DNA of 64,000 nucleotides from an uncultured Gammaproteobacteria bacterium (GTDB lineage Bacteria > Patescibacteriota > Patescibacteriia > CAIXNZ01), in contig CAZPVP010000004.1 of assembly GCA_964590345.1 (NCBI GenBank), positions 42 through 64,041 of the forward strand, read 5' to 3'. The stretch's first letter is position 1. Each line of letters starts with the position of its first letter. This document shows, piece by piece, positions 1 to 57,051 of the stretch. Below the pieces are notes generated by a model that ran no database searches, was not told where the DNA came from, and saw only the letters and a program-made list of their open reading frames with translations. A program made the translations under genes and the position numbers.

Positions 1-500
<500 letters not shown>

Positions 501-570
501 AAAAAAACATTATACATTTATAAGCTAGTCATTAGATACGGGTTGCTTCAATGAATTTGGAGCAACCAAA

Positions 571-677
571 TCTGGTGATTTTAGCGAAGGGGAAACACCT
601 GTTCCCATTTCGAACACAGCAGTTAAGCCCTTCAGCGCTGATGATAGTCCGCATGGGCGAAAGTAAGTCATTGCCAG
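571..677 (+). rRNA. rrf: 5S rRNA
   Basis: Conserved 5S core CCTGTTCCCATTTCGAACACAGCAGTTAAGCCC...GCGCTGATGATAGT; helix I pairing between the 5' CTGGTGA and the 3' TCATTGCCAG; an upstream processing hairpin lies at 541-567. Confidence 0.8.
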
Positions 678-683
678 TTTAAC

Positions 684-716
684 AAAAAACAATCCTTTTA
701 AGGATTGTTTTTTGTT
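684..716 (+). terminator. Rho-independent terminator after 5S rRNA
   Basis: Hairpin ACAATCCTT-TTAA-AAGGATTGT followed by a T-run. Confidence 0.7.
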
Positions 717-1288
717 ATCCGCCGAAGCCCTGTCTGCCGGCAGGCAGGTTTAGCGAAGGCGGATTAACTAAATTCGACAAAATATTTTATATAATATAAG
801 ATGATAATCAAGCTCCTTAGTATGAATACAGAATAGATACTACCGGTCTAACCATGGCGCGCGGGGATCTAGTTTCTAATGGGAGAACTTAAAAATGCAT
901 GGGAACGAATAGTGTCTGATTTTTCTAGAAATATTGTTGGAGGAAAGATAATTTAGAAAAGATGAAAAAGACGTCGATTCTTAACCAATGCGGTTCAAGG
1001 ATTATTGGAGATGTATTCAACTGAGGAGTTTTTATTTGATTCTTCTTTTTGTAACCAAAAAGAAACAAAAAGTTTTGGGGTGGCTCAATGCACTATCACG
1101 TTGATTGGTGATAGGTGGTGTTGATGTCGGCGCTTAGTCGCCACCCCAAACCCCTTGGTGCTATTAAAATGATCGAAGCTTTAAAATTAATTTAAAAAAT
1201 GTTAAACTGGAACTTAGTAGAAAGTTAGAAAGTAAAAAATTAAAAGAGCACTTTCAAACTTTTTTACTTTAAACTTTTAACTTATTTT

Positions 1289-2536
1289 ATGAGACAAATC
1301 GCAGACTTACATATTCACTCAAAATATTCCCGAGCATGTTCAAAGGAACTGACTTTACCCAATATTGACAAATGGTGTTCATATAAAGGTATTGATCTTG
1401 TGGCAACCGGTGATTTTACTCATCCGGTTTGGTTTGCTGATATAAAAAAATTACTTAAATCATTAGACAATGGTTTGTTTGAATTAAAAGAAGATTCTAA
1501 AGGGACCAAATTCATGCTTGGTACTGAAATCTCCTGTATTTATAAACAAGGCGATAAAACGCGTCGTGTCCATCATAATATTTATTTTCCGGAGATTAAA
1601 GATGTTGAAAAATTTAATTCAATTTTGGAAAAACAGGGACGTAATTTAAAATCAGATGGTCGGCCGATTTTGGGTTTAAGTTCTATTGAGCTGGCTAAAA
1701 TAATTTTTGAAATAAACGAAAAAGCAATTATAATTCCGGCTCACGCTTGGACGCCATGGTTTTCTATATTTGGATCAAAATCAGGATTTGATTCTATTGA
1801 AGAATGTTTTGATAAGTATGCTGATAAAATTTATGCCATTGAAACAGGTCTTTCTTCTGATCCGCCCATGAACTGGCGTTTATCTGTTTTAGATAAGGTA
1901 GTTTTAGTTTCTAATTCCGATGCTCATTCTTTACCCAATTTAGGACGGGAAGCCAATGTGTTTGAATGGGACAATCCGAGTTATGATGAATTTTATAATA
2001 CGTTAAAAAATCAGGATAAATCAAAATTTAAATATACAATTGAATTTTTCCCAGAAGAAGGTAAGTATCATTTTGACGGCCATGCCAGTTGTAATGTTTC
2101 TTTAAAACCCAAAGAAACAAAAAAGAATAAAGGTCTTTGCTCAAAATGTAAAAAGTCTTTAACAGTTGGTGTTTTGCATCGAGTTGATGATTTGGCAGAT
2201 CGCGAAAAAGGAGAATTAGATAAACATATTCCTTATAAAAGTTTAGTGCCTTTGCAGGAAATAATTGCTGAAGCTTTTGCAGTTGGTAAAAATTCAAAAA
2301 GAGTCCAGGATGAATATTTTGCCATGATAGAAAAAGGCAGCAGCGAATTTGAAATCTTGTTGGACAAAAGTTTGGTTGAATTAAAAAAAATTACGCAGCC
2401 GGAAATTGTGGAGGCGGTTAAGCGAGTTCGGGAAGGCAAATTAAATATTGAACCCGGTTATGATGGTGTTTATGGTAAGATTCAGATTTATAAAGATAAT
2501 GAGGAGCGAGGCGCAGTGCAAAAAAGTTTAATCTAA
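1289..2536 (+). CDS. Endonuclease Q (EndoQ) homolog, PHP domain plus Zn-finger
   Basis: N-terminal DLHIHSKYSRA PHP motif; GDxxHP, RVHHxxxFP, GRPxLxLS, IIPAHAWTPW and a CSKCKKS zinc-ribbon, with collinear similarity to Pyrococcus/Bacillus EndoQ. Confidence 0.7.
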   Translation: MRQIADLHIHSKYSRACSKELTLPNIDKWCSYKGIDLVATGDFTHPVWFADIKKLLKSLDNGLFELKEDSKGTKFMLGTEISCIYKQGDKTRRVHHNIYFPEIKDVEKFNSILEKQGRNLKSDGRPILGLSSIELAKIIFEINEKAIIIPAHAWTPWFSIFGSKSGFDSIEECFDKYADKIYAIETGLSSDPPMNWRLSVLDKVVLVSNSDAHSLPNLGREANVFEWDNPSYDEFYNTLKNQDKSKFKYTIEFFPEEGKYHFDGHASCNVSLKPKETKKNKGLCSKCKKSLTVGVLHRVDDLADREKGELDKHIPYKSLVPLQEIIAEAFAVGKNSKRVQDEYFAMIEKGSSEFEILLDKSLVELKKITQPEIVEAVKRVREGKLNIEPGYDGVYGKIQIYKDNEERGAVQKSLI

Positions 2537-2617
2537 ACACAACGTTTCACTTGGCGTGTTTTAAAAACAAGACCCCCTTACTTTTCTGTAAGAGGGCCTT
2601 ATTTTTTATTTTTTCTT

Positions 2618-2722
2618 TTTCCTTTTTGGAGCGGCTTTCTTTTTTTTCGGAGCTGCTTTCTTTTTTGTTGTTTTTCTTTTCTTTGGAGCCGCTTTCTTTT
2701 TTGTTGTCTTCTTTTTCTTTGC
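2618..2722. repeat. Imperfect tandem repeat (about 3 copies) of a pyrimidine-rich 30-36 bp unit GGAGCNGCTTTCTTTTTTGTTGT...
   Basis: Direct reading; lies between the EndoQ stop and the tRNA-Ala promoter. The track ORF 2551-2736 sits on this low-complexity repeat. Confidence 0.6.
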
Positions 2723-2942
2723 AGGCATTTTTTTAGAAGTTAATTAATTAAATTTTAAAAATATTTTATTAATTAATTTAATTATATCAATTTTTATAAA
2801 CAAAAAGAAATTTTTTAAAAAAAATTTGTGGATAACTTTTATTTTTCTTAAAAAATAAAAAATGAAAAGTTTTTCATATAAAAATTATTTTTAAGGGTAT
2901 TAAAAAGCAAGAGAAACAGAGGATAAAGAGTTTTTAATATAT

Positions 2943-2971
2943 TGACATGAAGAAAAAAAGTTGCTATACTG
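2943..2971 (+). promoter_or_regulatory. Sigma70-like promoter (TTGACA-17-TATACT) for tRNA-Ala
   Basis: TTGACAtgaagaaaaaaagttgcTATACT about 30 nt upstream of the tRNA. Confidence 0.5.
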
Positions 2972-3003
2972 GATTTAGTTCGCAAGAGCTGTTTTTATTT
3001 TTT

Positions 3004-3076
3004 GGGCCGTTAGCTCATTTGGTAGAGCACCTCGTTTGCACCGAGGAGGTGAAGGGTTCGAATCCCTTACGGTCCA
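3004..3076 (+). tRNA. tRNA-Ala (anticodon UGC)
   Basis: Cloverleaf: acceptor GGGCCGT/ACGGTCC, D-arm GCTC...GAGC, anticodon stem CCTCG/CGAGG with loop TTTGCAC, T-arm GAAGG-TTCGAAT-CCCTT. Confidence 0.85.
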
Positions 3077-3084
3077 CTTATTTA

Positions 3085-3116
3085 AAAAGAACGCATTTAA
3101 ATGCGTTCTTTGTGTT
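3085..3116 (+). terminator. Terminator hairpin after tRNA-Ala
   Basis: AAGAACGCATTTAAATGCGTTCTT followed by TGTGTT. Confidence 0.6.
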
Positions 3117-3127
3117 ATAATTAAATT

Positions 3128-3850
3128 ATGGACTTATCTTATATTGTTTTTATTGCCATTGCTTTTTTTGCTGCTATTGTATCTTCAACAGTTGGTTTTG
3201 GAGCGGCTTTAATAATTTTATCTTTTTCAACATTTTTATTGGATTATAAAATTTTAGTTGGTATTGTTACAGTTTATTTTATTGCTAATAATATTTTTAA
3301 ATTAATATTTTTTGGTAAACATATTAAATGGAAAATTGCTGGTTGGATTTTGCTTGGTTCATTACCTTTGGTAATTCTTGGTTCATTTTTATTAATTCAA
3401 GTTTCAGCTGAAATTTTAAAACGAATTTTAGGGTTAATTATTTTATTTTATGTAATTAATTATCAGTTTGATTTTTTTAAAAAACATAAACCTAAAATTT
3501 ATCAAATGCCGCTTATTGGAGCGATTTATGGTTTTTTCTCTGGCATGGTCGGTGTGGGTGATCCGATTAAAGCAGCTTTATTGAATCAAATTGGTTTGGT
3601 TAAACAAGAATTTATTGCTACCATGGCCATAATTGCTTTTATTCAAAATATTTTTAAAATTTCAATTTATTCAAAGTTTCAATTAGTTACCTTAAATGAC
3701 TGGCCAATTATTTTAGGCTTAATCATAGCTTCGTTTTGTGGAATTTATATTGGCCGCAATATTGTTAAAAAAATCAGCCCCAATTTATTTAGAAAACTAG
3801 TTTTGCTCATGCTAACAATTGTGGCAATTAAGTTGCTGCTTTTTGGCTAG
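3128..3850 (+). CDS. TSUP/TauE-SafE family (DUF81) membrane transporter
   Basis: Eight predicted TM helices and a glycine-rich VGFGAA motif typical of the sulfite-exporter TauE/SafE family. Confidence 0.6.
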   Translation: MDLSYIVFIAIAFFAAIVSSTVGFGAALIILSFSTFLLDYKILVGIVTVYFIANNIFKLIFFGKHIKWKIAGWILLGSLPLVILGSFLLIQVSAEILKRILGLIILFYVINYQFDFFKKHKPKIYQMPLIGAIYGFFSGMVGVGDPIKAALLNQIGLVKQEFIATMAIIAFIQNIFKISIYSKFQLVTLNDWPIILGLIIASFCGIYIGRNIVKKISPNLFRKLVLLMLTIVAIKLLLFG

Positions 3851-3930
3851 CCAAGGAAAAAATCGGCTTTGAAAAGGAATTAACTCTTTAGAGTTTATTA
3901 TAAAAGATAAGGTCTGAATTCCGGGTAAAG

Positions 3931-3972
3931 CCAATTTTTTCTTTTGACTTTTTAGTCAATTTTAGCTAAAAT
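3931..3972 (+). promoter_or_regulatory. 42-bp promoter-containing repeat, copy 1 (TTGACT-N18-TAAAAT), upstream of the RM operon
   Basis: ccaattttttcttTTGACTttttagtcaattttagcTAAAAT; near-identical (about 36/42) to copy 2 at 6688-6729. Confidence 0.6.
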
Positions 3973-4054
3973 GTTGGTATTGAAATATAAAAATAAATTT
4001 GGCTATTTTTGAATTTTAGGGTAAAATTTAATTATAATTTACCCTTTTTTAATT

Positions 4055-5248
4055 ATGAATAAAACAAAATTATTAACAAAAATAGAAACACCTATCCCAT
4101 CCAAATCTTTTCTTAATGGGACAGATTTATCATTTGCTAATGTTAGAGAGTATGAAAGAACAAAACATGTTCATCGCTTGCATCCTTATCTTGGTAAGTT
4201 TATTCCGCAACTAGTAGAAGTTTTTCTAAAGAGTTATTTTAAGAAAGGAGATTTTATTCTTGATCCATTTATGGGTTCGGGGACAACATTAATTGAAGCA
4301 AATATTTTAGGTATGCATTCAGCTGGTATAGAAATTTCACTTTTTAATTGTTTAATAGCGGAAACAAAAATAAAAGAATACGATATATTATTTGTTGAAG
4401 AAGAAATAAAAGATATCCTTCAAAAGACAAAGGAATTTAGTAAATGTCTTGTTAAAGGGCAAAGGCAATTAACTTTATTAAAAAATAATTTTAAAAAATA
4501 TAAAACTAATAGTGAATATCTAAACACTTGGCTTGCTGATAGATCCTTGCAAGAAATTTTATTCTATAGAGAACAAATTAAAAATTATCAAAATCAAAAT
4601 ATACTTAAAATTATTCTGAGTCGCGCAACACGAAGTGCTCGCTTAATTCCGCATTACGATTTAGCTAGGCCTAAAAAACCGATAAGAGAAAAATATTATT
4701 GTATAAAGCACAGAAGAATATGTGAACCGGTCAATGAGGCACTCAAATTTATTAATCGTTATAGTTGGGATACAATAAAAAGAATAAAAGAATTTGATAA
4801 TTTACGAACTAAAGCAAAGATTGATATTATTCAAGGCGATTCAAGAAAGGTTAGTCTTGACAAATTAAATAAATTTGATGGTATTTTTACTTCACCACCA
4901 TATGTTGGTTTAATTGATTATCACGATCAACATAGATATGCATATGACCTTTTTGGTTTAGATGATAATGGTTTTAATGAAATTGGGCCGGCGTCAAAAG
5001 GGAAAAGTCGAGAAGCAAAAGAAGAATACAAAAATAATATAATTGCTGTTTTTAAAAATATAAATAAATATTTAAAACCGAAAGCAAAAATATTTGTAGT
5101 AGTTAATGATAAAGATGATCTTTATTCAGGAGTTGCTGATGCTTGTGGTTATAGTATTGAGAAAATTTTTTATCGCCCTGTTTTGATGAGAACAGAAAGG
5201 GATAATGCTAAATTTTCAGAAAGTATTTATTATTTTATAAAAAAATAA
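4055..5248 (+). CDS. DNA methyltransferase (amino-MTase, N4-cytosine or N6-adenine); motif I DPFMGSGTT, motif IV SPPY
   Basis: HPYLGKF...DPFMGSGTTLIEA (AdoMet-binding motif I) near the N-terminus and FTSPPY (catalytic motif IV) near residue 277. A REase gene starts 2 nt downstream. Confidence 0.7.
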   Translation: MNKTKLLTKIETPIPSKSFLNGTDLSFANVREYERTKHVHRLHPYLGKFIPQLVEVFLKSYFKKGDFILDPFMGSGTTLIEANILGMHSAGIEISLFNCLIAETKIKEYDILFVEEEIKDILQKTKEFSKCLVKGQRQLTLLKNNFKKYKTNSEYLNTWLADRSLQEILFYREQIKNYQNQNILKIILSRATRSARLIPHYDLARPKKPIREKYYCIKHRRICEPVNEALKFINRYSWDTIKRIKEFDNLRTKAKIDIIQGDSRKVSLDKLNKFDGIFTSPPYVGLIDYHDQHRYAYDLFGLDDNGFNEIGPASKGKSREAKEEYKNNIIAVFKNINKYLKPKAKIFVVVNDKDDLYSGVADACGYSIEKIFYRPVLMRTERDNAKFSESIYYFIKK

Positions 5249-5249
5249 T

Positions 5250-6032
5250 ATGGGTCTAACAAAAAAACAAAAAGAAGAAATTAATAATTATTTAGTTTTA
5301 AAAATAAGAGAAAAACTCGCTAATTATAAGCCGGAAACAAGTTCGATGCCTTTTCAAGTTAGGTTACTTGGAAAGGACAAAATGGCTTTGTTTTCGTTTA
5401 TTCACTCTGTAAATACTACTCTCGGAACTTCAATTTTTGAAAAGGTAGGGCAGATTATTGCGAAACCACTAGTTAAAGAGGCAAAGGATAGATATGATTT
5501 TGAGGGTTTTATTAGTGGCGGAGCTGTATTAAAGATTGATTCAATAATGCGTAGTTTACGTTCTGCAGAGAGAAGTCCAAACAAAAAGTTGGAAATAAAA
5601 GAAGTTTTAGAAGTTTCGCAGAAGGGCACAATGGGCAAAAGACTTAAAAAGCGTGTTGATCTTTTTATAATTGATAAAGATAATACAGAAAATTATTTCG
5701 AAATTAAAACTGCGAAACCCAATATCAATGAATTTACGGGGATTAAAAAACAACTTTTAGACTGGATAGCAATGCGCGGGAGTATTGATCCTAAGGTTAA
5801 AATAAAAACAATAGTGGCAATACCTTATAATCCTTATGCCCCTCAACCATATGAACGATGGACATTACAAGGTTTATTTGATTTAGAAAAAGAGGTTTTA
5901 GTAGGTGATGAATTTTGGGATATGCTGGGAGGGAAGGGAACTTATAAAAATTTGCTAAAAGTATTTGAGGAAGCGGGTTTAGAATTGCGAGATGAAATAG
6001 AACAAAAAATGAAAAGTGTTGGGGAAAAATGA
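5250..6032 (+). CDS. Putative type II restriction endonuclease (PD-(D/E)xK), possibly TdeIII-like
   Basis: Translationally coupled to the MTase; candidate catalytic motif VDLFIID...ENYFEIKTAK (D...ExK). Family assignment comes from recollection, not from a search. Confidence 0.45.
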   Translation: MGLTKKQKEEINNYLVLKIREKLANYKPETSSMPFQVRLLGKDKMALFSFIHSVNTTLGTSIFEKVGQIIAKPLVKEAKDRYDFEGFISGGAVLKIDSIMRSLRSAERSPNKKLEIKEVLEVSQKGTMGKRLKKRVDLFIIDKDNTENYFEIKTAKPNINEFTGIKKQLLDWIAMRGSIDPKVKIKTIVAIPYNPYAPQPYERWTLQGLFDLEKEVLVGDEFWDMLGGKGTYKNLLKVFEEAGLELRDEIEQKMKSVGEK

Positions 6033-6048
6033 AATAATATAATTTTAT

Positions 6049-6630
6049 ATGAGAAATAAAATAGATGATCGACTTTTGACTTTTATATGGGATGAATTAT
6101 CTTTAGCACACACACATTTAACTTTCATTTATAATTTAATTGATTATACTAAAAAGTTAAGAAGTAAAAAAAATATATTAACTAATTATGAAGAATATAT
6201 CTATTTAGTTATAGTGAATCATTTAAATTTTATTATTTTGAGTTTAAGTAAAATATTTGATAAAAGAAGAGATGTAAAAAAAATCGATTTATTATTAGAT
6301 GGTATCGTAGATTTGCAAGTCAAACAAAGTTTACAAAATGAGATTAATGAACTTAGAGATTTATTTGAGAATTCGGAATTAAAAAATTCAAGAGACGAAG
6401 TAATCGCACATTTTGAAAGAAACAGGGGAGCTCATTTTGAATTACCTCGCTTAGATCAATTAGAAAAAATTGGAGAGATAATAAGTAAAACTGCATATTT
6501 TCTTGAGGATAAGATTTACAAAGAAATTTTAGGCGAAGATATACAATTAGAATTGATTATTTTTAATGTAATGAAAGATTTTAAGAGACTAATTAATGAT
6601 ATTGAAAAAATTAATAAATTACAAGATTAG
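6049..6630 (+). CDS. HEPN-like (Abi-type) protein with an Rx4H motif, linked to the RM operon
   Basis: C-proximal AHFERNRGAHFE contains an R-N-x3-H HEPN-type motif; mostly helical; same strand and tightly spaced after the R gene. Confidence 0.4.
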   Translation: MRNKIDDRLLTFIWDELSLAHTHLTFIYNLIDYTKKLRSKKNILTNYEEYIYLVIVNHLNFIILSLSKIFDKRRDVKKIDLLLDGIVDLQVKQSLQNEINELRDLFENSELKNSRDEVIAHFERNRGAHFELPRLDQLEKIGEIISKTAYFLEDKIYKEILGEDIQLELIIFNVMKDFKRLINDIEKINKLQD

Positions 6631-6647
6631 ATCAAGATAAATAAATG

Positions 6648-6693
6648 AATTGGTATTAGATCTTTCGAGCATGATAGAATAACAATACCAATT
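6648..6693 (+). terminator. Hairpin/terminator after the RM-HEPN operon (10-bp inverted repeat AATTGGTATT...AATACCAATT)
   Basis: Perfect 10-bp inverted repeat with a 26-nt loop; the 3' arm overlaps the start of promoter-repeat copy 2. Confidence 0.4.
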
Positions 6694-6729
6694 TTTTCTT
6701 TTGACTTTTTATCATAATTTCGCTAAAAT
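6688..6729 (+). promoter_or_regulatory. 42-bp promoter-containing repeat, copy 2 (TTGACT-N18-TAAAAT), the ileS promoter
   Basis: ccaattttttcttTTGACTttttatcataatttcgcTAAAAT, 35 nt upstream of the ileS ATG. Confidence 0.6.
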
Positions 6730-6763
6730 TAAGGATATTAAATAGATAAAAATATTTATTTAT

Positions 6764-9739
6764 ATGAAAGAAAAAAAATCCCAGTTTGCCCAAAAAGAAG
6801 AGGAAATAATTAAATTTTGGGAGAAAAATAAAATTTTTGAAAAATCAATTGAGCAGCGCAAAGAGTCGCCTATTTTTTCATTTTATGACGGGCCGCCTTT
6901 TGCTTCTGGTTCGCCGCATTATGGCCATATTTTGGCTTCAACCTTGAAAGATACAGTAACACGTTATTGGACAATGCGCGGTTATAAAGTTGAAAGGACA
7001 GTAGGCTGGGATTGTCATGGTTTGCCAGTGGAAAACTTGATTGAAAAAGAAAAAAAGATTAAATCAAAAAAAGAAATTTTAGAATTAGGCAAAGATGAAT
7101 ATGAAAGCATTAAAATTTTTAACGAAGCTTGTGCTGCTTCAGTTTTTCGTTGTGTAGATGAATGGAAAGATATTTTTAAACGCATTGGCCGTTGGGCAAA
7201 TTATGAAAATCAATATTCTACCATGGATAACGCATATATTGAATCTGTATGGTGGGTTTTTAAAGAATTATTTAATAGAGGATTAGTTTATAAAGATTAC
7301 CGGGTTTCTCCTTATTGTCCTCGTTGCGGCACACCCCTTTCTAATTTTGAAGTTAATCAAGGATACCAAAAAGTAAAAGAAAATTCTGTTTATTTGCAGT
7401 TTAAATTAAAGCTAGGTCAAAAAATAAATAATGAAGAATTAGATAAAAATACTTATATTCTTTCCTGGACTACGACCCCCTGGACTTTGCCGGGTAATGT
7501 TGGTTTGGCAGTTGGAGAAAATATTGATTACATTAAAGTTAAAGTTAATAATCATTATTTAATTTTGGCTAAAGCACGTCTGGAAATTATTGAGAGAATT
7601 TTTACAAATTACGACGTGGTTGAATATTATAAAGGCAGTGATTTGCTGGGCTTAGAATATGAACCGTTGTTTCCCAGCGCGATTCCGAAAAAGGAAACTA
7701 ATTTTGAAAATGCTTATAAAGTCTATGGCGCTGATTTTGTTACTACTGATGAAGGCACCGGCATAGTGCATACAGCTGTTATGTATGGCGAAGATGATTA
7801 TCAGTTAGGAGAAAAAATACGCTTGCCTAAGTACCATACGGTTGATTTAGAAGGTAAGTTTGTTGAGAGCCTTAAAAAATATAAGCTGGCTAATAAATTT
7901 GTAAAAGCAAAAGAAACCGAAGAAATAATAATTGATTATTTAAAAAAGAACCAATTTTTGTTTTACGAAGAATTATATGAGCACGATTATCCATTTTGTT
8001 GGCGTTGCGATAGTCCCCTGCTTTATTACGCACTTGATGCTTGGTTTGTTGCAGTGACAGAATTTCAAAACGATTTGACTAAAAATAATTTAACTATCGA
8101 ATTAGAGGACCCAAATGGCAAAAAGCACAAAGGTATTCGTTGGGTGCCGGAACATCTAAAAAGGGGTAGATTTGGCCATTGGTTAGAAAATGTTAAAGAT
8201 TGGAATATTTCCAGAAATCGTTTTTGGGGGGCACCTTTGCCGGTTTGGCAATGTCAAAAATGTGAACAAATTAAAGTTGTAGGTAGCCGGAAAGAGTTAG
8301 AAAATCCAGCGATTAAAGATTTACACAGGCCATACATTGATGAAGTTAAGTTTAAATGTAATTGCGGCGGTGAAATGCAAAGAATAGAAGAAGTTTTTGA
8401 CTGTTGGTTTGAATCTGGCTCAATGCCTTATGCCCAGTATCATTATCCATTTGAAAATAAGGAGAAGCTTGAAAATGGATTCCCGGCTGATTTTATTGCG
8501 GAAGGCTTAGATCAAACGCGGGGCTGGTTTTACACTTTACATGTTTTAGCTACAGCTTTATTTAATCAGCCGGCTTTTAAAAACGTGGTAGTTAACGGAT
8601 TAATTTTGGCTGAAGATGGTAAAAAGTTATCTAAGCGGCTAAAGAATTATACCGAGCCAAATATTTTATTTGATAAAGTTGGTGTTGATGCTGTTCGTTA
8701 TTTTCTTTTAGCTTCAACTCCAGTAGGGGAAGATTATCGTTTTTCAGACAGATTGGTTGAGGAAACGCTAAGAAAGACTGTTATGTTAATAAATAATATT
8801 TATAACTTTTTCGCCTTATATGAAAACACTGTTGAATATGATAAAGAGTTAAAACCAGAAAATTTAAAAAATATTTTAGACAAATGGATTGTTGCCAAAT
8901 TGAATTTATTAATAAAAAAAATAACAGAAGAAATGGACCGGTTTGACTTAACCAGAGCCAGCCGGCCGATTTTGGAGTTTATTAATGAATTCTCAACATG
9001 GTATTTGCGTCGCAGTCGTGATCGTTTTAAAGGTAATGATGAGGAAGACAAGAAATACGCTTTGGCTACTATGCATTATGTTTTATTGAATCTAAGTAAA
9101 GTATGCGGGCCTTTTATGCCATTTGTTTCTGAAGATATTTATCAAAAAATTAAAGGCCATAAAGAAAGCGTGCATTTGGAAGATTGGCCAGAGATTGCTG
9201 CTGAATTAATTGATACTAAATTATTAGAACAGATGGAAACTGTCAAAAAAATTATTGAACAGGCCTTGGCCGTCAGAGCCGAAGCAGGTATTAAAATACG
9301 TCAGCCGTTAAATAAGCTTTACATTACAAAAAAATCTGTGCCTAAGGATTTATACTTTTTAATTAAAGATGAAGTTAATATTAAGGAAATTGAAGTAGCT
9401 GATAAATTTCCTCAAAGTGACAATTTTAACATCGAAGCTGATGAAAATTATAAAGTCTGTTTGGATATTGAAATTACTCAAGATCTAAAATTAGAAGGCA
9501 ATGCCCGAGAAATAATCAGGCAAATTAATGCTTTGAGAAAGAAAATGAATTTGACTGTGGGAGATGTCGTTAATATTGTTTACCAAACTGAATCAGAAGA
9601 ATTAAAAAAAACAATTAATAAATTTGTTGAGGAAATTAAAAATAATACTTTAAGCAAAGAAATAATTGAGGGAGATGCCAATGAAGAAATGGATATTAAT
9701 GGAGAGAAGATTTTAATAAGAATAGAGAAAAAAGAATAA
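6764..9739 (+). CDS. ileS: Isoleucyl-tRNA synthetase
   Basis: HYGH motif (SPHYGHILAS), KMSKS-type KLSKRLKN, CP1 editing domain, 991 aa. Confidence 0.9.
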   Translation: MKEKKSQFAQKEEEIIKFWEKNKIFEKSIEQRKESPIFSFYDGPPFASGSPHYGHILASTLKDTVTRYWTMRGYKVERTVGWDCHGLPVENLIEKEKKIKSKKEILELGKDEYESIKIFNEACAASVFRCVDEWKDIFKRIGRWANYENQYSTMDNAYIESVWWVFKELFNRGLVYKDYRVSPYCPRCGTPLSNFEVNQGYQKVKENSVYLQFKLKLGQKINNEELDKNTYILSWTTTPWTLPGNVGLAVGENIDYIKVKVNNHYLILAKARLEIIERIFTNYDVVEYYKGSDLLGLEYEPLFPSAIPKKETNFENAYKVYGADFVTTDEGTGIVHTAVMYGEDDYQLGEKIRLPKYHTVDLEGKFVESLKKYKLANKFVKAKETEEIIIDYLKKNQFLFYEELYEHDYPFCWRCDSPLLYYALDAWFVAVTEFQNDLTKNNLTIELEDPNGKKHKGIRWVPEHLKRGRFGHWLENVKDWNISRNRFWGAPLPVWQCQKCEQIKVVGSRKELENPAIKDLHRPYIDEVKFKCNCGGEMQRIEEVFDCWFESGSMPYAQYHYPFENKEKLENGFPADFIAEGLDQTRGWFYTLHVLATALFNQPAFKNVVVNGLILAEDGKKLSKRLKNYTEPNILFDKVGVDAVRYFLLASTPVGEDYRFSDRLVEETLRKTVMLINNIYNFFALYENTVEYDKELKPENLKNILDKWIVAKLNLLIKKITEEMDRFDLTRASRPILEFINEFSTWYLRRSRDRFKGNDEEDKKYALATMHYVLLNLSKVCGPFMPFVSEDIYQKIKGHKESVHLEDWPEIAAELIDTKLLEQMETVKKIIEQALAVRAEAGIKIRQPLNKLYITKKSVPKDLYFLIKDEVNIKEIEVADKFPQSDNFNIEADENYKVCLDIEITQDLKLEGNAREIIRQINALRKKMNLTVGDVVNIVYQTESEELKKTINKFVEEIKNNTLSKEIIEGDANEEMDINGEKILIRIEKKE

Positions 9740-13484: not shown

Positions 13485-14399
13485 ATGGAAATAAAAGAAA
13501 TCACAAATAAAGAACAGTGGGATGAAAAGATTGGCTCTTTTAAGCAGAGCCAGTTTTTACAATCTTGGGAGTGGGGTGAATTTCAGGAAAATTTAGGCAG
13601 AAAAGTTTGGCGTCTATATTTAGATGGGGATTTTGCTTTAGTTATTAAAATGCCCTTGCCCATGAATAAAAGCTATTTATATATCCCCCGGACATGTGTG
13701 ACCTTTAATGAGGCAAAAATTAAAATTTTGCGCGAGTTAGCTAAACAAGAAAAAAGCATTTTTATAAAAATTGAACCTATTAAGCAAAACTTGTTGGATT
13801 TTGGCCTTAAAAAGGTTAAGTCGTTTCAGCCGCAAAAAACATTAATTTTAGATTTAAGTAAAAGTGAGGAAGAGTTATTGATGGCCATGCATCAGAAAAC
13901 CCGCTATAATATTCGTTTAGCAGATAAAAAAGGCGTTAAGATTAAAGAAGGCAGGAAAAATGATTTTGATGTTTTCTATAATTTAATGTTAAATACTTAT
14001 CAGCGTAAAAATAAAAAACTTTTTTCCAAAGAATATTATCAGAAATTAATCAATAATATCTCTGAAGCAAAAATTTATTTAGCAGAATTTGAAGAAAAAG
14101 TTATTTGTGCGAATTTAATTATGTTTTATGGCGATACAGTTACTTATTTACATGGCGGTTCAGCGCAAGAACATAAAAATGTTATGGCACCGTATTTATT
14201 GCAATGGGAAACAATAAAAAAAGCCAAAGAACTTGGCTATAAATATTATGATTTTTGGGGAATTGAAGAACATTATCTCGGAGTTGCCCGTTTTAAAAAG
14301 GGTTTTGGCGGGATTGAGATTGAATACCCGGGCACATTTGATTTAGTGATGGATAAATTATGGTATTGGGCTTATCAAGTGGTTAAAAAGTTCAAATAA
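13485..14399 (+). CDS. FemAB-family aminoacyltransferase-like protein (GNAT-like fold)
   Basis: Size and WEWGEF / TYLHGGS / YYDFWG segments resemble FemX/FemAB peptidoglycan bridge-forming enzymes; assignment is moderate. Confidence 0.4.
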   Translation: MEIKEITNKEQWDEKIGSFKQSQFLQSWEWGEFQENLGRKVWRLYLDGDFALVIKMPLPMNKSYLYIPRTCVTFNEAKIKILRELAKQEKSIFIKIEPIKQNLLDFGLKKVKSFQPQKTLILDLSKSEEELLMAMHQKTRYNIRLADKKGVKIKEGRKNDFDVFYNLMLNTYQRKNKKLFSKEYYQKLINNISEAKIYLAEFEEKVICANLIMFYGDTVTYLHGGSAQEHKNVMAPYLLQWETIKKAKELGYKYYDFWGIEEHYLGVARFKKGFGGIEIEYPGTFDLVMDKLWYWAYQVVKKFK

Positions 14400-14427
14400 A
14401 AAATTGGTTTTTTGAGGAGTTCACTCT

Positions 14428-27303: not shown

Positions 27304-27848
27304 CTAGATATCTAAATGAGTAAGCCGGATTCTGTTACCTCTTTAAAGAGGCGAGGTCATCTATCTAGGTCCTCACTTACGTTCGGACTCAAGCGAACTA
27401 CTTTTAATTCCGCATTGCGGAACTTTGTTCTTGCACCAGGTAGAGTTTGCCACGGTCTTCCTGTTACCAGGAGCCGAGTCTTGTAGCCATTTGTCTCGAG
27501 AACAAATAACATCAAGACACTTTTCACGTTTCGCAAATGGCTTGGGCAGATAGCAAATTGCTATAAGCCATTGGCCATAAGCTAGTCTAGTCTCTGTGGC
27601 ACTGGTCCTGACTTAATATTGCTATTAAGCCGGCGGGTGTTACCCGTTACCGCCCACTGCTACGCAGTGGAAATTCCAAATTTCAAAATTCAAATAACAA
27701 AAATTGATATTTGTCATTTGTTATTTGGTTCTTCCATTGCGCAGCAATGGTTTGGTGTCCGGACTTTCCTCCCATGCCCGCCGAAGCTTTAGCGAATGTG
27801 GGGCTTCGCATTGGACATGAGCGACCTCTGCTTATTTAGATATCTAGA
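27304..27848 (-). ncRNA. rnpB: RNase P RNA (bacterial type A), about 545 nt, with an AT-rich hairpin insertion
   Basis: Minus strand carries GGGAGGAAAGTCCGGACACC (P4 5' strand), CCAGTGCCACAGAGA (P10-P11) and ACAGAATCCGGCTTAC (P4 3' strand). The 5' AGATATCTAAATAAGC pairs with the 3' GCTTACTCATTTAGATATCT (P1). No ORFs; GC about 50%. Confidence 0.85.
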
Positions 27849-33810: not shown

Positions 33811-33950
33811 ATAAGTACCTCCTTTTGTGATTTTTATTTTTCAAAGAATACCTTTAAAGAATACCTTTATTGAAGCCAATTTGGCTTAATAGTATATTTT
33901 AGCAGTTTTTTTTGATTTGTCAATAGTAATTGATCTTTTTAAAAGATAAA

Positions 33951-56841: not shown

Positions 56842-56946
56842 TTTAGTCCGCCTGGGTGGAATCCTCGCTTTCGCTAAAGCTTCAGCGGGGCAGGCGAACC
56901 CTCGAACCCTACCTTACTTGCCCCGCCGAACAAAGCCATTTTAAGG

Positions 56947-57018
56947 TGCGCGTGGATGGAATCGAACCATCGACATCCACCTTATAAGGGTGGCGCTCTA
57001 ACCGCTGAGCTACACGCG
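56947..57018 (-). tRNA. tRNA-Ile (anticodon UAU)
   Basis: Minus-strand cloverleaf: acceptor GCGCGTG/CACGCGC, D GCTC-AGCGGTT-AGAGC, anticodon stem CCACC/GGTGG with loop CTTATAA (U33, UAU, A37), T-arm GATGG-TTCGATT-CCATC. Confidence 0.7.
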
Positions 57019-57051
57019 CATAAAAATATTATACTTTTAAAATGTTCGGCT

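Follow-up and report, generated by a model that had tools for sequence, protein, structure and literature searches.

A TdeIII-family restriction-modification unit between two copies of the ileS promoter in a Patescibacteria genome

The locus and its genes

A 64-kb stretch of contig CAZPVP010000004.1 (hereafter the window), from a host assigned to the Patescibacteria (candidate phyla radiation, CPR), carries immediately upstream of ileS, the isoleucyl-tRNA synthetase gene (6764..9739, + strand), a segment that encodes a DNA methyltransferase (MTase), a restriction endonuclease (REase), as well as a HEPN-like protein. All three genes are on the + strand and lie between two copies of a direct repeat, as a preliminary description of the sequence had reported. 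The same description proposed that a restriction-modification (RM) cassette had been inserted here with duplication of the ileS promoter, and it is this proposal that is examined below. The homologues of the ileS open reading frame (ORF) are uniformly annotated as IleS, with the best at 74–75% identity.

The first gene of the segment (4055..5248, +) specifies an MTase of the N6/N4 amino type (PF01555, E 3e-17; PADLOC MTase_II, E 8.8e-113). In it motif I, DPFMGSG (aa 70), is followed by motif IV, SPPY (aa 280), in agreement with the initial assignment, and the latter motif suggests N4-cytosine methylation. The protein exhibits 76–79% amino acid identity to MTases that are partnered with the same REase elsewhere. 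The second gene (5250..6032, +) begins 1 nt beyond the MTase stop codon, a junction that is kept at other loci, and encodes a Type II REase of the TdeIII family; the match to PF09520 (RE_TdeIII, E 4.6e-73) covers residues 5–243, the full length of the protein, and scores 246 bits, the cut-off being 27.2. It had been described as a PD-(D/E)xK enzyme; the residues D137...E151-x-K153 are invariant in 11 homologues. The MTase would protect, and the REase would restrict, one and the same site. Analysis of site avoidance in the window revealed no clear depletion of GGNCC (63 observed, 75 expected), GANTC (123 and 135, respectively) or other NNxNN palindromes.

The third gene (6049..6630, +; 22.7% GC) is an orphan ORF of 193 aa. 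HEPN/AbiU2 abortive-infection proteins often adjoin RM systems, and we tentatively regard this product as a HEPN (AbiU2-like) protein, which presumably would act as an abortive-infection RNase. In favor of this assignment are its position directly 3′ of the RM pair, a weak match of residues 8–125 to PF18734 (HEPN_AbiU2, E 6.3e-6), two adjacent R-x4-6-H motifs, one R-x5-H (RDEVIAH, 115–121) and one R-x4-H (RNRGAH, 124–129), and a single-sequence AlphaFold2 model that is all-helical. On the other hand, the Pfam score of 26.2 bits falls just under the cut-off of 26.8, and the model is of low confidence (pLDDT, the predicted local distance difference test, 46.6; pTM, the predicted template modelling score, 0.41). 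No homologue came to light in some 15 billion proteins; a word-indexed search of 5.8 billion clustered proteins and exhaustive phmmer of 1.84 billion representatives recovered the ORF alone, nor was there a match in PADLOC, NCBIfam, PHROGs, PDB or viral contigs.

The direct repeat

Copy 1 of the repeat (3931–3972) reads CCAATTTTTTCTTTTGACTTTTTAGTCAATTTTAGCTAAAAT and copy 2 (6688–6729) reads CCAATTTTTTCTTTTGACTTTTTATCATAATTTCGCTAAAAT; they are identical at 36 of 42 positions, as first reported. The opening 24 nt, CCAATTTTTTCTTTTGACTTTTTA, contain no mismatch and the -10 region, GCTAAAAT, is common to both, all six mismatches being confined to 11 nt of the spacer between the -35 and -10 elements. 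The 24-mer occurs exactly twice in the 64 kb, where 100 dinucleotide-preserving shuffles gave an expectation of 0.00. A pattern scan for TTGACT-N16-18-TAAAAT likewise recovered these two copies as the sole sites in the window. The repeat search extended the similarity in register to 70 nt (3931–4000 and 6688–6757, both on the + strand) at 76% identity, so that beyond each 42-nt core there is a weaker resemblance which, in copy 2, ends 7 nt 5′ of the ileS ATG. The left edge is sharp, with no similarity upstream of 3931 and 6688. Along the repeat the two copies differ at none of the first 24 positions, at 6 of the next 18 and at 11 of the last 28. A third, weak match (14384–14407, - strand) lacks a -10 element, is located in an unrelated stretch and was dismissed for these reasons.

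In copy 1 the putative -35 hexamer TTGACT (3944–3949) and the -10 hexamer TAAAAT (3967–3972) are separated by a 17-nt spacer. In copy 2, which occupies the native position, the corresponding elements are at 6701–6706 and 6724–6729, and the leader reaches the ileS ATG at 6764. The clustered spacer mismatches can be explained by one deletion, one insertion and two substitutions, with the 17-nt spacing kept, and this pattern suggests that both copies have been maintained as working promoters. Copy 1 retains all 19 invariant columns of the promoter alignment, an alignment which includes both window copies.

The cassette may be transcribed from copy 1. A terminator-like hairpin with T-run at the 3′-end of the upstream gene (3821..3849, +), found by consensus scan alone, would insulate this copy from upstream transcription. 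The same kind of scan revealed a second promoter-like site, TTGAAT-18-TATAAT (4009..4038, +), which is nearer the MTase start than copy 1 and is a candidate alternative. It is overlapped by an 8-bp hairpin, AGGGTAAA/TTTACCCT (4018–4045), which has a 12-nt loop containing TATAAT and is followed by TTTTT (4046–4050). The whole element, 4018–4050, follows copy 1 and ends 5 nt before the MTase ATG, and could serve as an attenuator or operator of the cassette. Folding of the RNA reproduced the 8-bp stem with a z-score of -1.05, which is not significant, and the hairpin was set aside as an attenuator or terminator on that ground. From the HEPN-like gene to copy 2 the consensus scan found no terminator-like site, and transcription may therefore read through into ileS.

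Comparison with related genomes

The eight closest genomes (L001–L008) each contain the 29-nt element TTGAC-N16-GCTAAAAT once, directly upstream of ileS, with T-rich DNA preceding it and a similar leader (AAGGATATTAA-like) following. Scanning of metagenomes with TTTTGACTTTT-N7-WTTTMGCTAAAAT yielded 12 contigs, in nine of which the element is directly 5′ of an ileS homologue that encodes a protein 48–75% identical to the IleS of the window. Besides L001–L008, the set of contigs with an ileS-type promoter comprises L095, L097, L098, L100, L101 and L103–L106. An nhmmer profile built from the promoters of the eight relatives alone was run against the 64-kb window and matched 3934–3983 (30.8 bits, E 1.1e-8) and 6691–6749 (30.6 bits, E 1.3e-8); the next match scored 8.6 bits. 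Because a profile that had seen only the relatives finds just the two copies, the repeat is, judged by its sequence, the ileS promoter with its leader, as had been surmised, and not a consensus that recurs genome-wide, which the preliminary description had named as the finding that would undo its proposal. Nor does any relative carry both repeats with nothing between them, the other such finding it had named; a second ileS-type promoter near ileS was found in none of the 15 relatives compared.

Across a broad clade of Patescibacteria, with IleS proteins 48–75% identical to that of the window, the conservation of the ileS promoter is unusual; the upstream regions of the neighboring PHP gene, taken as a control, are unalignable in the same genomes. 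Conservation of the promoter and of the start of the leader suggests that ileS transcription is under specific regulatory constraint in the clade. Promoters of this type are not confined to ileS: related -35/-10 pairs precede other genes in 3 of the 12 metagenome matches, at position 818 of L001 and at 33923 (- strand) of the window. The L001 site (818–846) is a weaker second ileS-like promoter (TTGACATTTAGTCTTGATTTTGCTAAAAT, 13 bits) situated between PHP and tRNA-Ala.

The relatives share the gene order PHP, tRNA-Ala, a variable interval, the promoter and ileS. In the window the conserved left landmark is tRNA-Ala(UGC) (3004..3077, +; ARAGORN and Rfam), and a tRNA-Ala gene is found near ileS in all those relatives whose sequences reach that far (L001, L003–L008, L100, L101, L104 and L106); its orientation flips between genomes. 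The interval, which in the window spans 3078–6687, is occupied by a divergent DUF4349 gene in L001 (1082–2400), L007 and L008, by seven clustered ORFs, some of them ABC-transporter-like (a function read from sequence), in L004–L006, and by other genes in L003. In L100, the closest relative, tRNA-Ala is followed by 155 nt, the promoter and ileS, with no intervening gene. None of the relatives examined has an RM system in this interval. The left neighbor of the cassette in the window is a gene for a TauE/SafE-family membrane protein (3128..3850, +; PF01925, E 1.1e-37), which a tblastn search recovered from none of 80 related loci and which no relative was found to have at this position. A TauE gene followed directly by ileS, the form in which an empty site had been predicted, was never seen; what comes nearest is L100, with no gene between tRNA-Ala and the promoter.

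The methyltransferase-endonuclease pair in other hosts

The REase has 2691 homologues, among them many Patescibacteria proteins of approximately 80% identity, and the MTase-REase (M-R) pair recurs at 76–80% amino acid identity in at least five unrelated contexts on other Patescibacteria contigs. It is found downstream of tRNA-Ser and gpsA (L081), near tRNA-Ser (L087), adjoining serine recombinases (L088 and L092) and behind a helix-turn-helix (HTH) gene (L094); in L089 an 88-aa ORF separates M from R. In this the initial proposal is supported, and we conclude that MTase and REase form a conserved two-gene mobile unit among the Patescibacteria.

Homology at the DNA level between the other loci and the window is restricted to 4124–6011, and the gene that follows the REase is different at every locus, none being related to the HEPN-like ORF. 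The mobile unit therefore consists of M plus R, and the HEPN-like gene is a lineage-specific passenger separate from it; the preliminary description, which had treated the three genes as one module, is to be corrected in this respect. None of the other M-R loci examined has an ileS-type promoter beside the unit. In viral contigs the REase gave no match as a single sequence and one match, of 45% identity, as a profile; with so few matches there is no evidence for phages as the usual vector.

The M-R unit lies 73 nt 3′ of tRNA-Ser (3898–3986) in L081 and about 600 nt 3′ of tRNA-Ser (4100–4186) in L087, where a small zinc-ribbon-like ORF intervenes. L087 and L088 (compared over 1–4557) are otherwise identical contigs which carry the same M-R unit with wholly different left flanks; the flank in L088 encodes a large serine recombinase and a second MTase and also contains an HTH gene. 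In L092 (1931–7304) the unit is placed between recombinase/resolvase genes, near a ParB-MTase gene. The differing flanks of L087 and L088, together with the setting in L092, indicate that the M-R unit rides recombinase-bearing elements in some hosts.

Origin of the arrangement

We consider insertion of the RM genes upstream of ileS, with duplication of the ileS promoter and leader, to be the likeliest history of this locus, at a probability of roughly 60%. A two-gene Type II RM unit, together with the orphan HEPN-like gene, would have been inserted immediately upstream of ileS, and the insertion would have been accompanied by direct duplication of the target, namely the ileS promoter together with the greater part of its 5′ leader (clearly 42 nt, probably about 70 nt). 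Neither an integrase, a transposase nor terminal inverted repeats would have been involved. The essential ileS gene would have retained an intact promoter in copy 2, and the cassette would have acquired a housekeeping promoter, copy 1, located after the putative TauE terminator. The order of these events is as we infer it. What stands of the original proposal is its geometry, the identity of the promoter and the mobility of the M-R pair; its historical detail is unproven.

The two copies are best compared in three parts. Within the 29-nt core they are identical at 23 positions, while the core of copy 1 agrees at 28 of 29 with the L001 and L098 promoters of ileS and at 26 of 29 with the family consensus, and that of copy 2 at 26 of 29 with the promoters of L008 and L103. 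The core being no closer between the copies than to orthologous promoters, the case for duplication is carried by the 13 nt upstream of the -35 element and by the leader. The former are identical at 13 of 13 positions between the copies and at no more than 9 of 13 to any of L001–L008; among them are CCAA and a C at -3, neither of which is seen in any of the 15 relatives compared. The leaders agree, in register, at 17 of 28 positions. Upstream of ileS, the 15 relatives have a single copy of the promoter, with neither an RM system nor TauE, at a level of orthology that is that of the family (IleS no more than 75% identical).

Several observations weigh against this history. The core shows membership in the ileS promoter family rather than recent paralogy, and the uneven divergence of the copies is not what simple duplication followed by drift predicts. 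The closest IleS is 74% identical among 5.8 billion proteins, 74% in GTDB species genomes and 74.7% in JGI metagenomes; the collections searched contain no conspecific or congeneric genome and hence show no single-copy empty site at that level. Long flanking repeats were not found at the homologous M-R loci of L081, L087 and L088. In addition, the HEPN-like gene may have arrived separately from the M-R unit.

The six mismatches clustered in 11 nt would also suggest long selection on both promoters, and together with the lack of long flanking repeats at other M-R loci they lend some weight to the view that duplication or recruitment of the ileS promoter was an event separate from the RM insertion, either in that repeats were already there and chance placed the cassette between them (the third class of Furuta) or in that a copy was added later and kept for expression. 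However, the cassette boundaries fall at the edges of the repeat, a second such promoter near ileS is seen in none of the 15 relatives, and two events are required where one suffices; we regard this view as unlikely, though deserving of serious consideration. Copy 1 might instead have come, along with the cassette, from a related donor among the Patescibacteria, through Campbell-type homologous recombination at the promoter which left hybrid copies. Such an origin would account for the close match of its core to L001 and L098 and for its leader, which is nearer to that of L006 (21 of 28) than to copy 2 (15 of 28 in the same comparison), and it accords with M-R genes that are 76–80% identical to those of other hosts when the best IleS anywhere reaches 75%. 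Against this, the proximity of copy 1 to the family consensus makes a likeness to many relatives expected, the lineage-specific 13 nt are present in both copies, a single crossover needs a donor with the same upstream sequence, and an ileS-type promoter accompanies no other M-R unit. Import thus appears quite improbable.

That there was no duplication at all is an explanation in which we place very little faith. It would have the two copies be independent, generic strong sigma-70-type promoters, for which the related -35/-10 pairs that precede other genes might be cited, or else the product of misassembly at a shared k-mer. The profile leaves a gap of more than 20 bits between the two copies and the rest of the 64 kb, and the 13/13 match upstream falls outside the conserved promoter positions. 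Misassembly would require two misjoins, and the cassette's GC content (23–33%) fits that of the host and window (about 33%). A 24-nt exact repeat is, moreover, shorter than the final k-mer sizes that are usual in assembly.

Returning to insertion with target duplication, a further proposal can be made, one that is speculative and to which we assign a low probability: the duplication would serve a function instead of being a passive scar, and the ileS promoter and leader would be a preferred site of landing and capture, at which promoter-less RM units gain a strong housekeeping promoter and co-transcription with an essential gene. If so, loss of the cassette would be costly except by precise recombination between the copies, and the conservation of the promoter would also indicate an unrecognised regulatory element of ileS in these reduced genomes.

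Comparison with known systems

The entry of RM genes by "insertion with long target duplication" has been described, with examples that include 46-bp repeats in Haemophilus influenzae, under the criteria that R and M lie in the insert, that the insert is less than 20 kb, that the repeat exceeds 30 bp and that no other mobile element is present (Furuta 2010, PMC2853133). The present locus fits this geometry. R and M are inside the insert, which measures about 2.7 kb between repeat starts, there is no integrase or transposase, and the direct repeats (42–70 bp, near the 46 bp of the H. influenzae cases) have a sequence which related genomes carry once, at the corresponding site. The published cases rest on conspecific empty sites and repeats of 94–100% identity, whereas here the comparison is with relatives at family level and the repeats are 86% identical (76% over 70 nt). 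The locus differs further in its target, the deeply conserved promoter of an essential gene, in its host, a member of the Patescibacteria, and in the orphan third gene inside the repeats.

The RM pair itself resembles the TdeIII Type II system (PF09520; Treponema denticola TDE0911) in the full-length REase match, the D...E-x-K residues and the adjacent, co-oriented amino-MTase. Horizontal transfer of a TdeIII-like pair into Helicobacter pylori has been proposed (Furuta 2012, PMC3467074). The newer Pfam label for the family, "HinfI," indicates that specificity varies within it, and the window shows no clear avoidance of GGNCC or GANTC. The HEPN-like gene departs from the usual AbiU2 neighbor of an RM system in that it is not kept at other M-R loci.

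Integrase-borne islands at tRNA genes offer a partial parallel, since direct repeats flank foreign genes here, a tRNA gene lies 0.85 kb upstream, and some homologous M-R units are just 3′ of tRNA-Ser or beside serine recombinases. Yet no integrase, recombinase or transposase was detected within 1–12.6 kb of the window, and the repeat is an imperfect promoter that does not overlap a tRNA. RM systems borne by transposons or insertion sequences differ in having a transposase, terminal inverted repeats and a short target-site duplication, and the repeat search found no inverted repeat pairs at the ends of the insert.

The locus does not change the current understanding of RM mobility; it fits a known route of RM entry, here in an unusual lineage, one whose mobile-element biology is poorly described. 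Its value is as a small, clear example of RM gene movement without a recombinase of its own, which shows how insertion before an essential gene can be tolerated when there is a promoter on both sides. The two copies permit precise excision or amplification of the cassette, and the conserved ileS promoter is a possible landmark for promoter studies in uncultured Patescibacteria.

Neighboring genes and other features

The window starts with the 3′-end of the 23S rRNA gene and the 5S rRNA gene. Within 1–12.6 kb, the genes neighboring the cassette are those for PHP, tRNA-Ala, TauE, IleS, NIF3, an ORF without a Pfam match and peptidase U32. The best IleS matches (67–75% identity) are all from Patescibacteria/CPR, namely Buchananbacteria, Uhrbacteria, Falkowbacteria and Parcubacteria.

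A 40-aa, very lysine-rich ORF (MPAKKKKTTKKKAAPKKRKTTKKKAAPKKKKAAPKRKKKK) at 2606–2728 (- strand) is made of 21/36-nt tandem repeats, and inspection of the sequence revealed a GC-rich inverted repeat just past its stop; its product may be a small basic protein of the histone H1-like or nucleoid-associated kind. At 56945–57019 (- strand), adjoining tRNA-Val(GAC), there is a tRNA-Ile with the anticodon UAU, which reads AUA directly. Such a tRNA is uncommon in bacteria, compared with the lysidine-modified CAU tRNA. The match to RNase P RNA (class A) at 27310–27837 (- strand) is 528 nt in length against a model of 367 positions, which implies that it contains large insertions.

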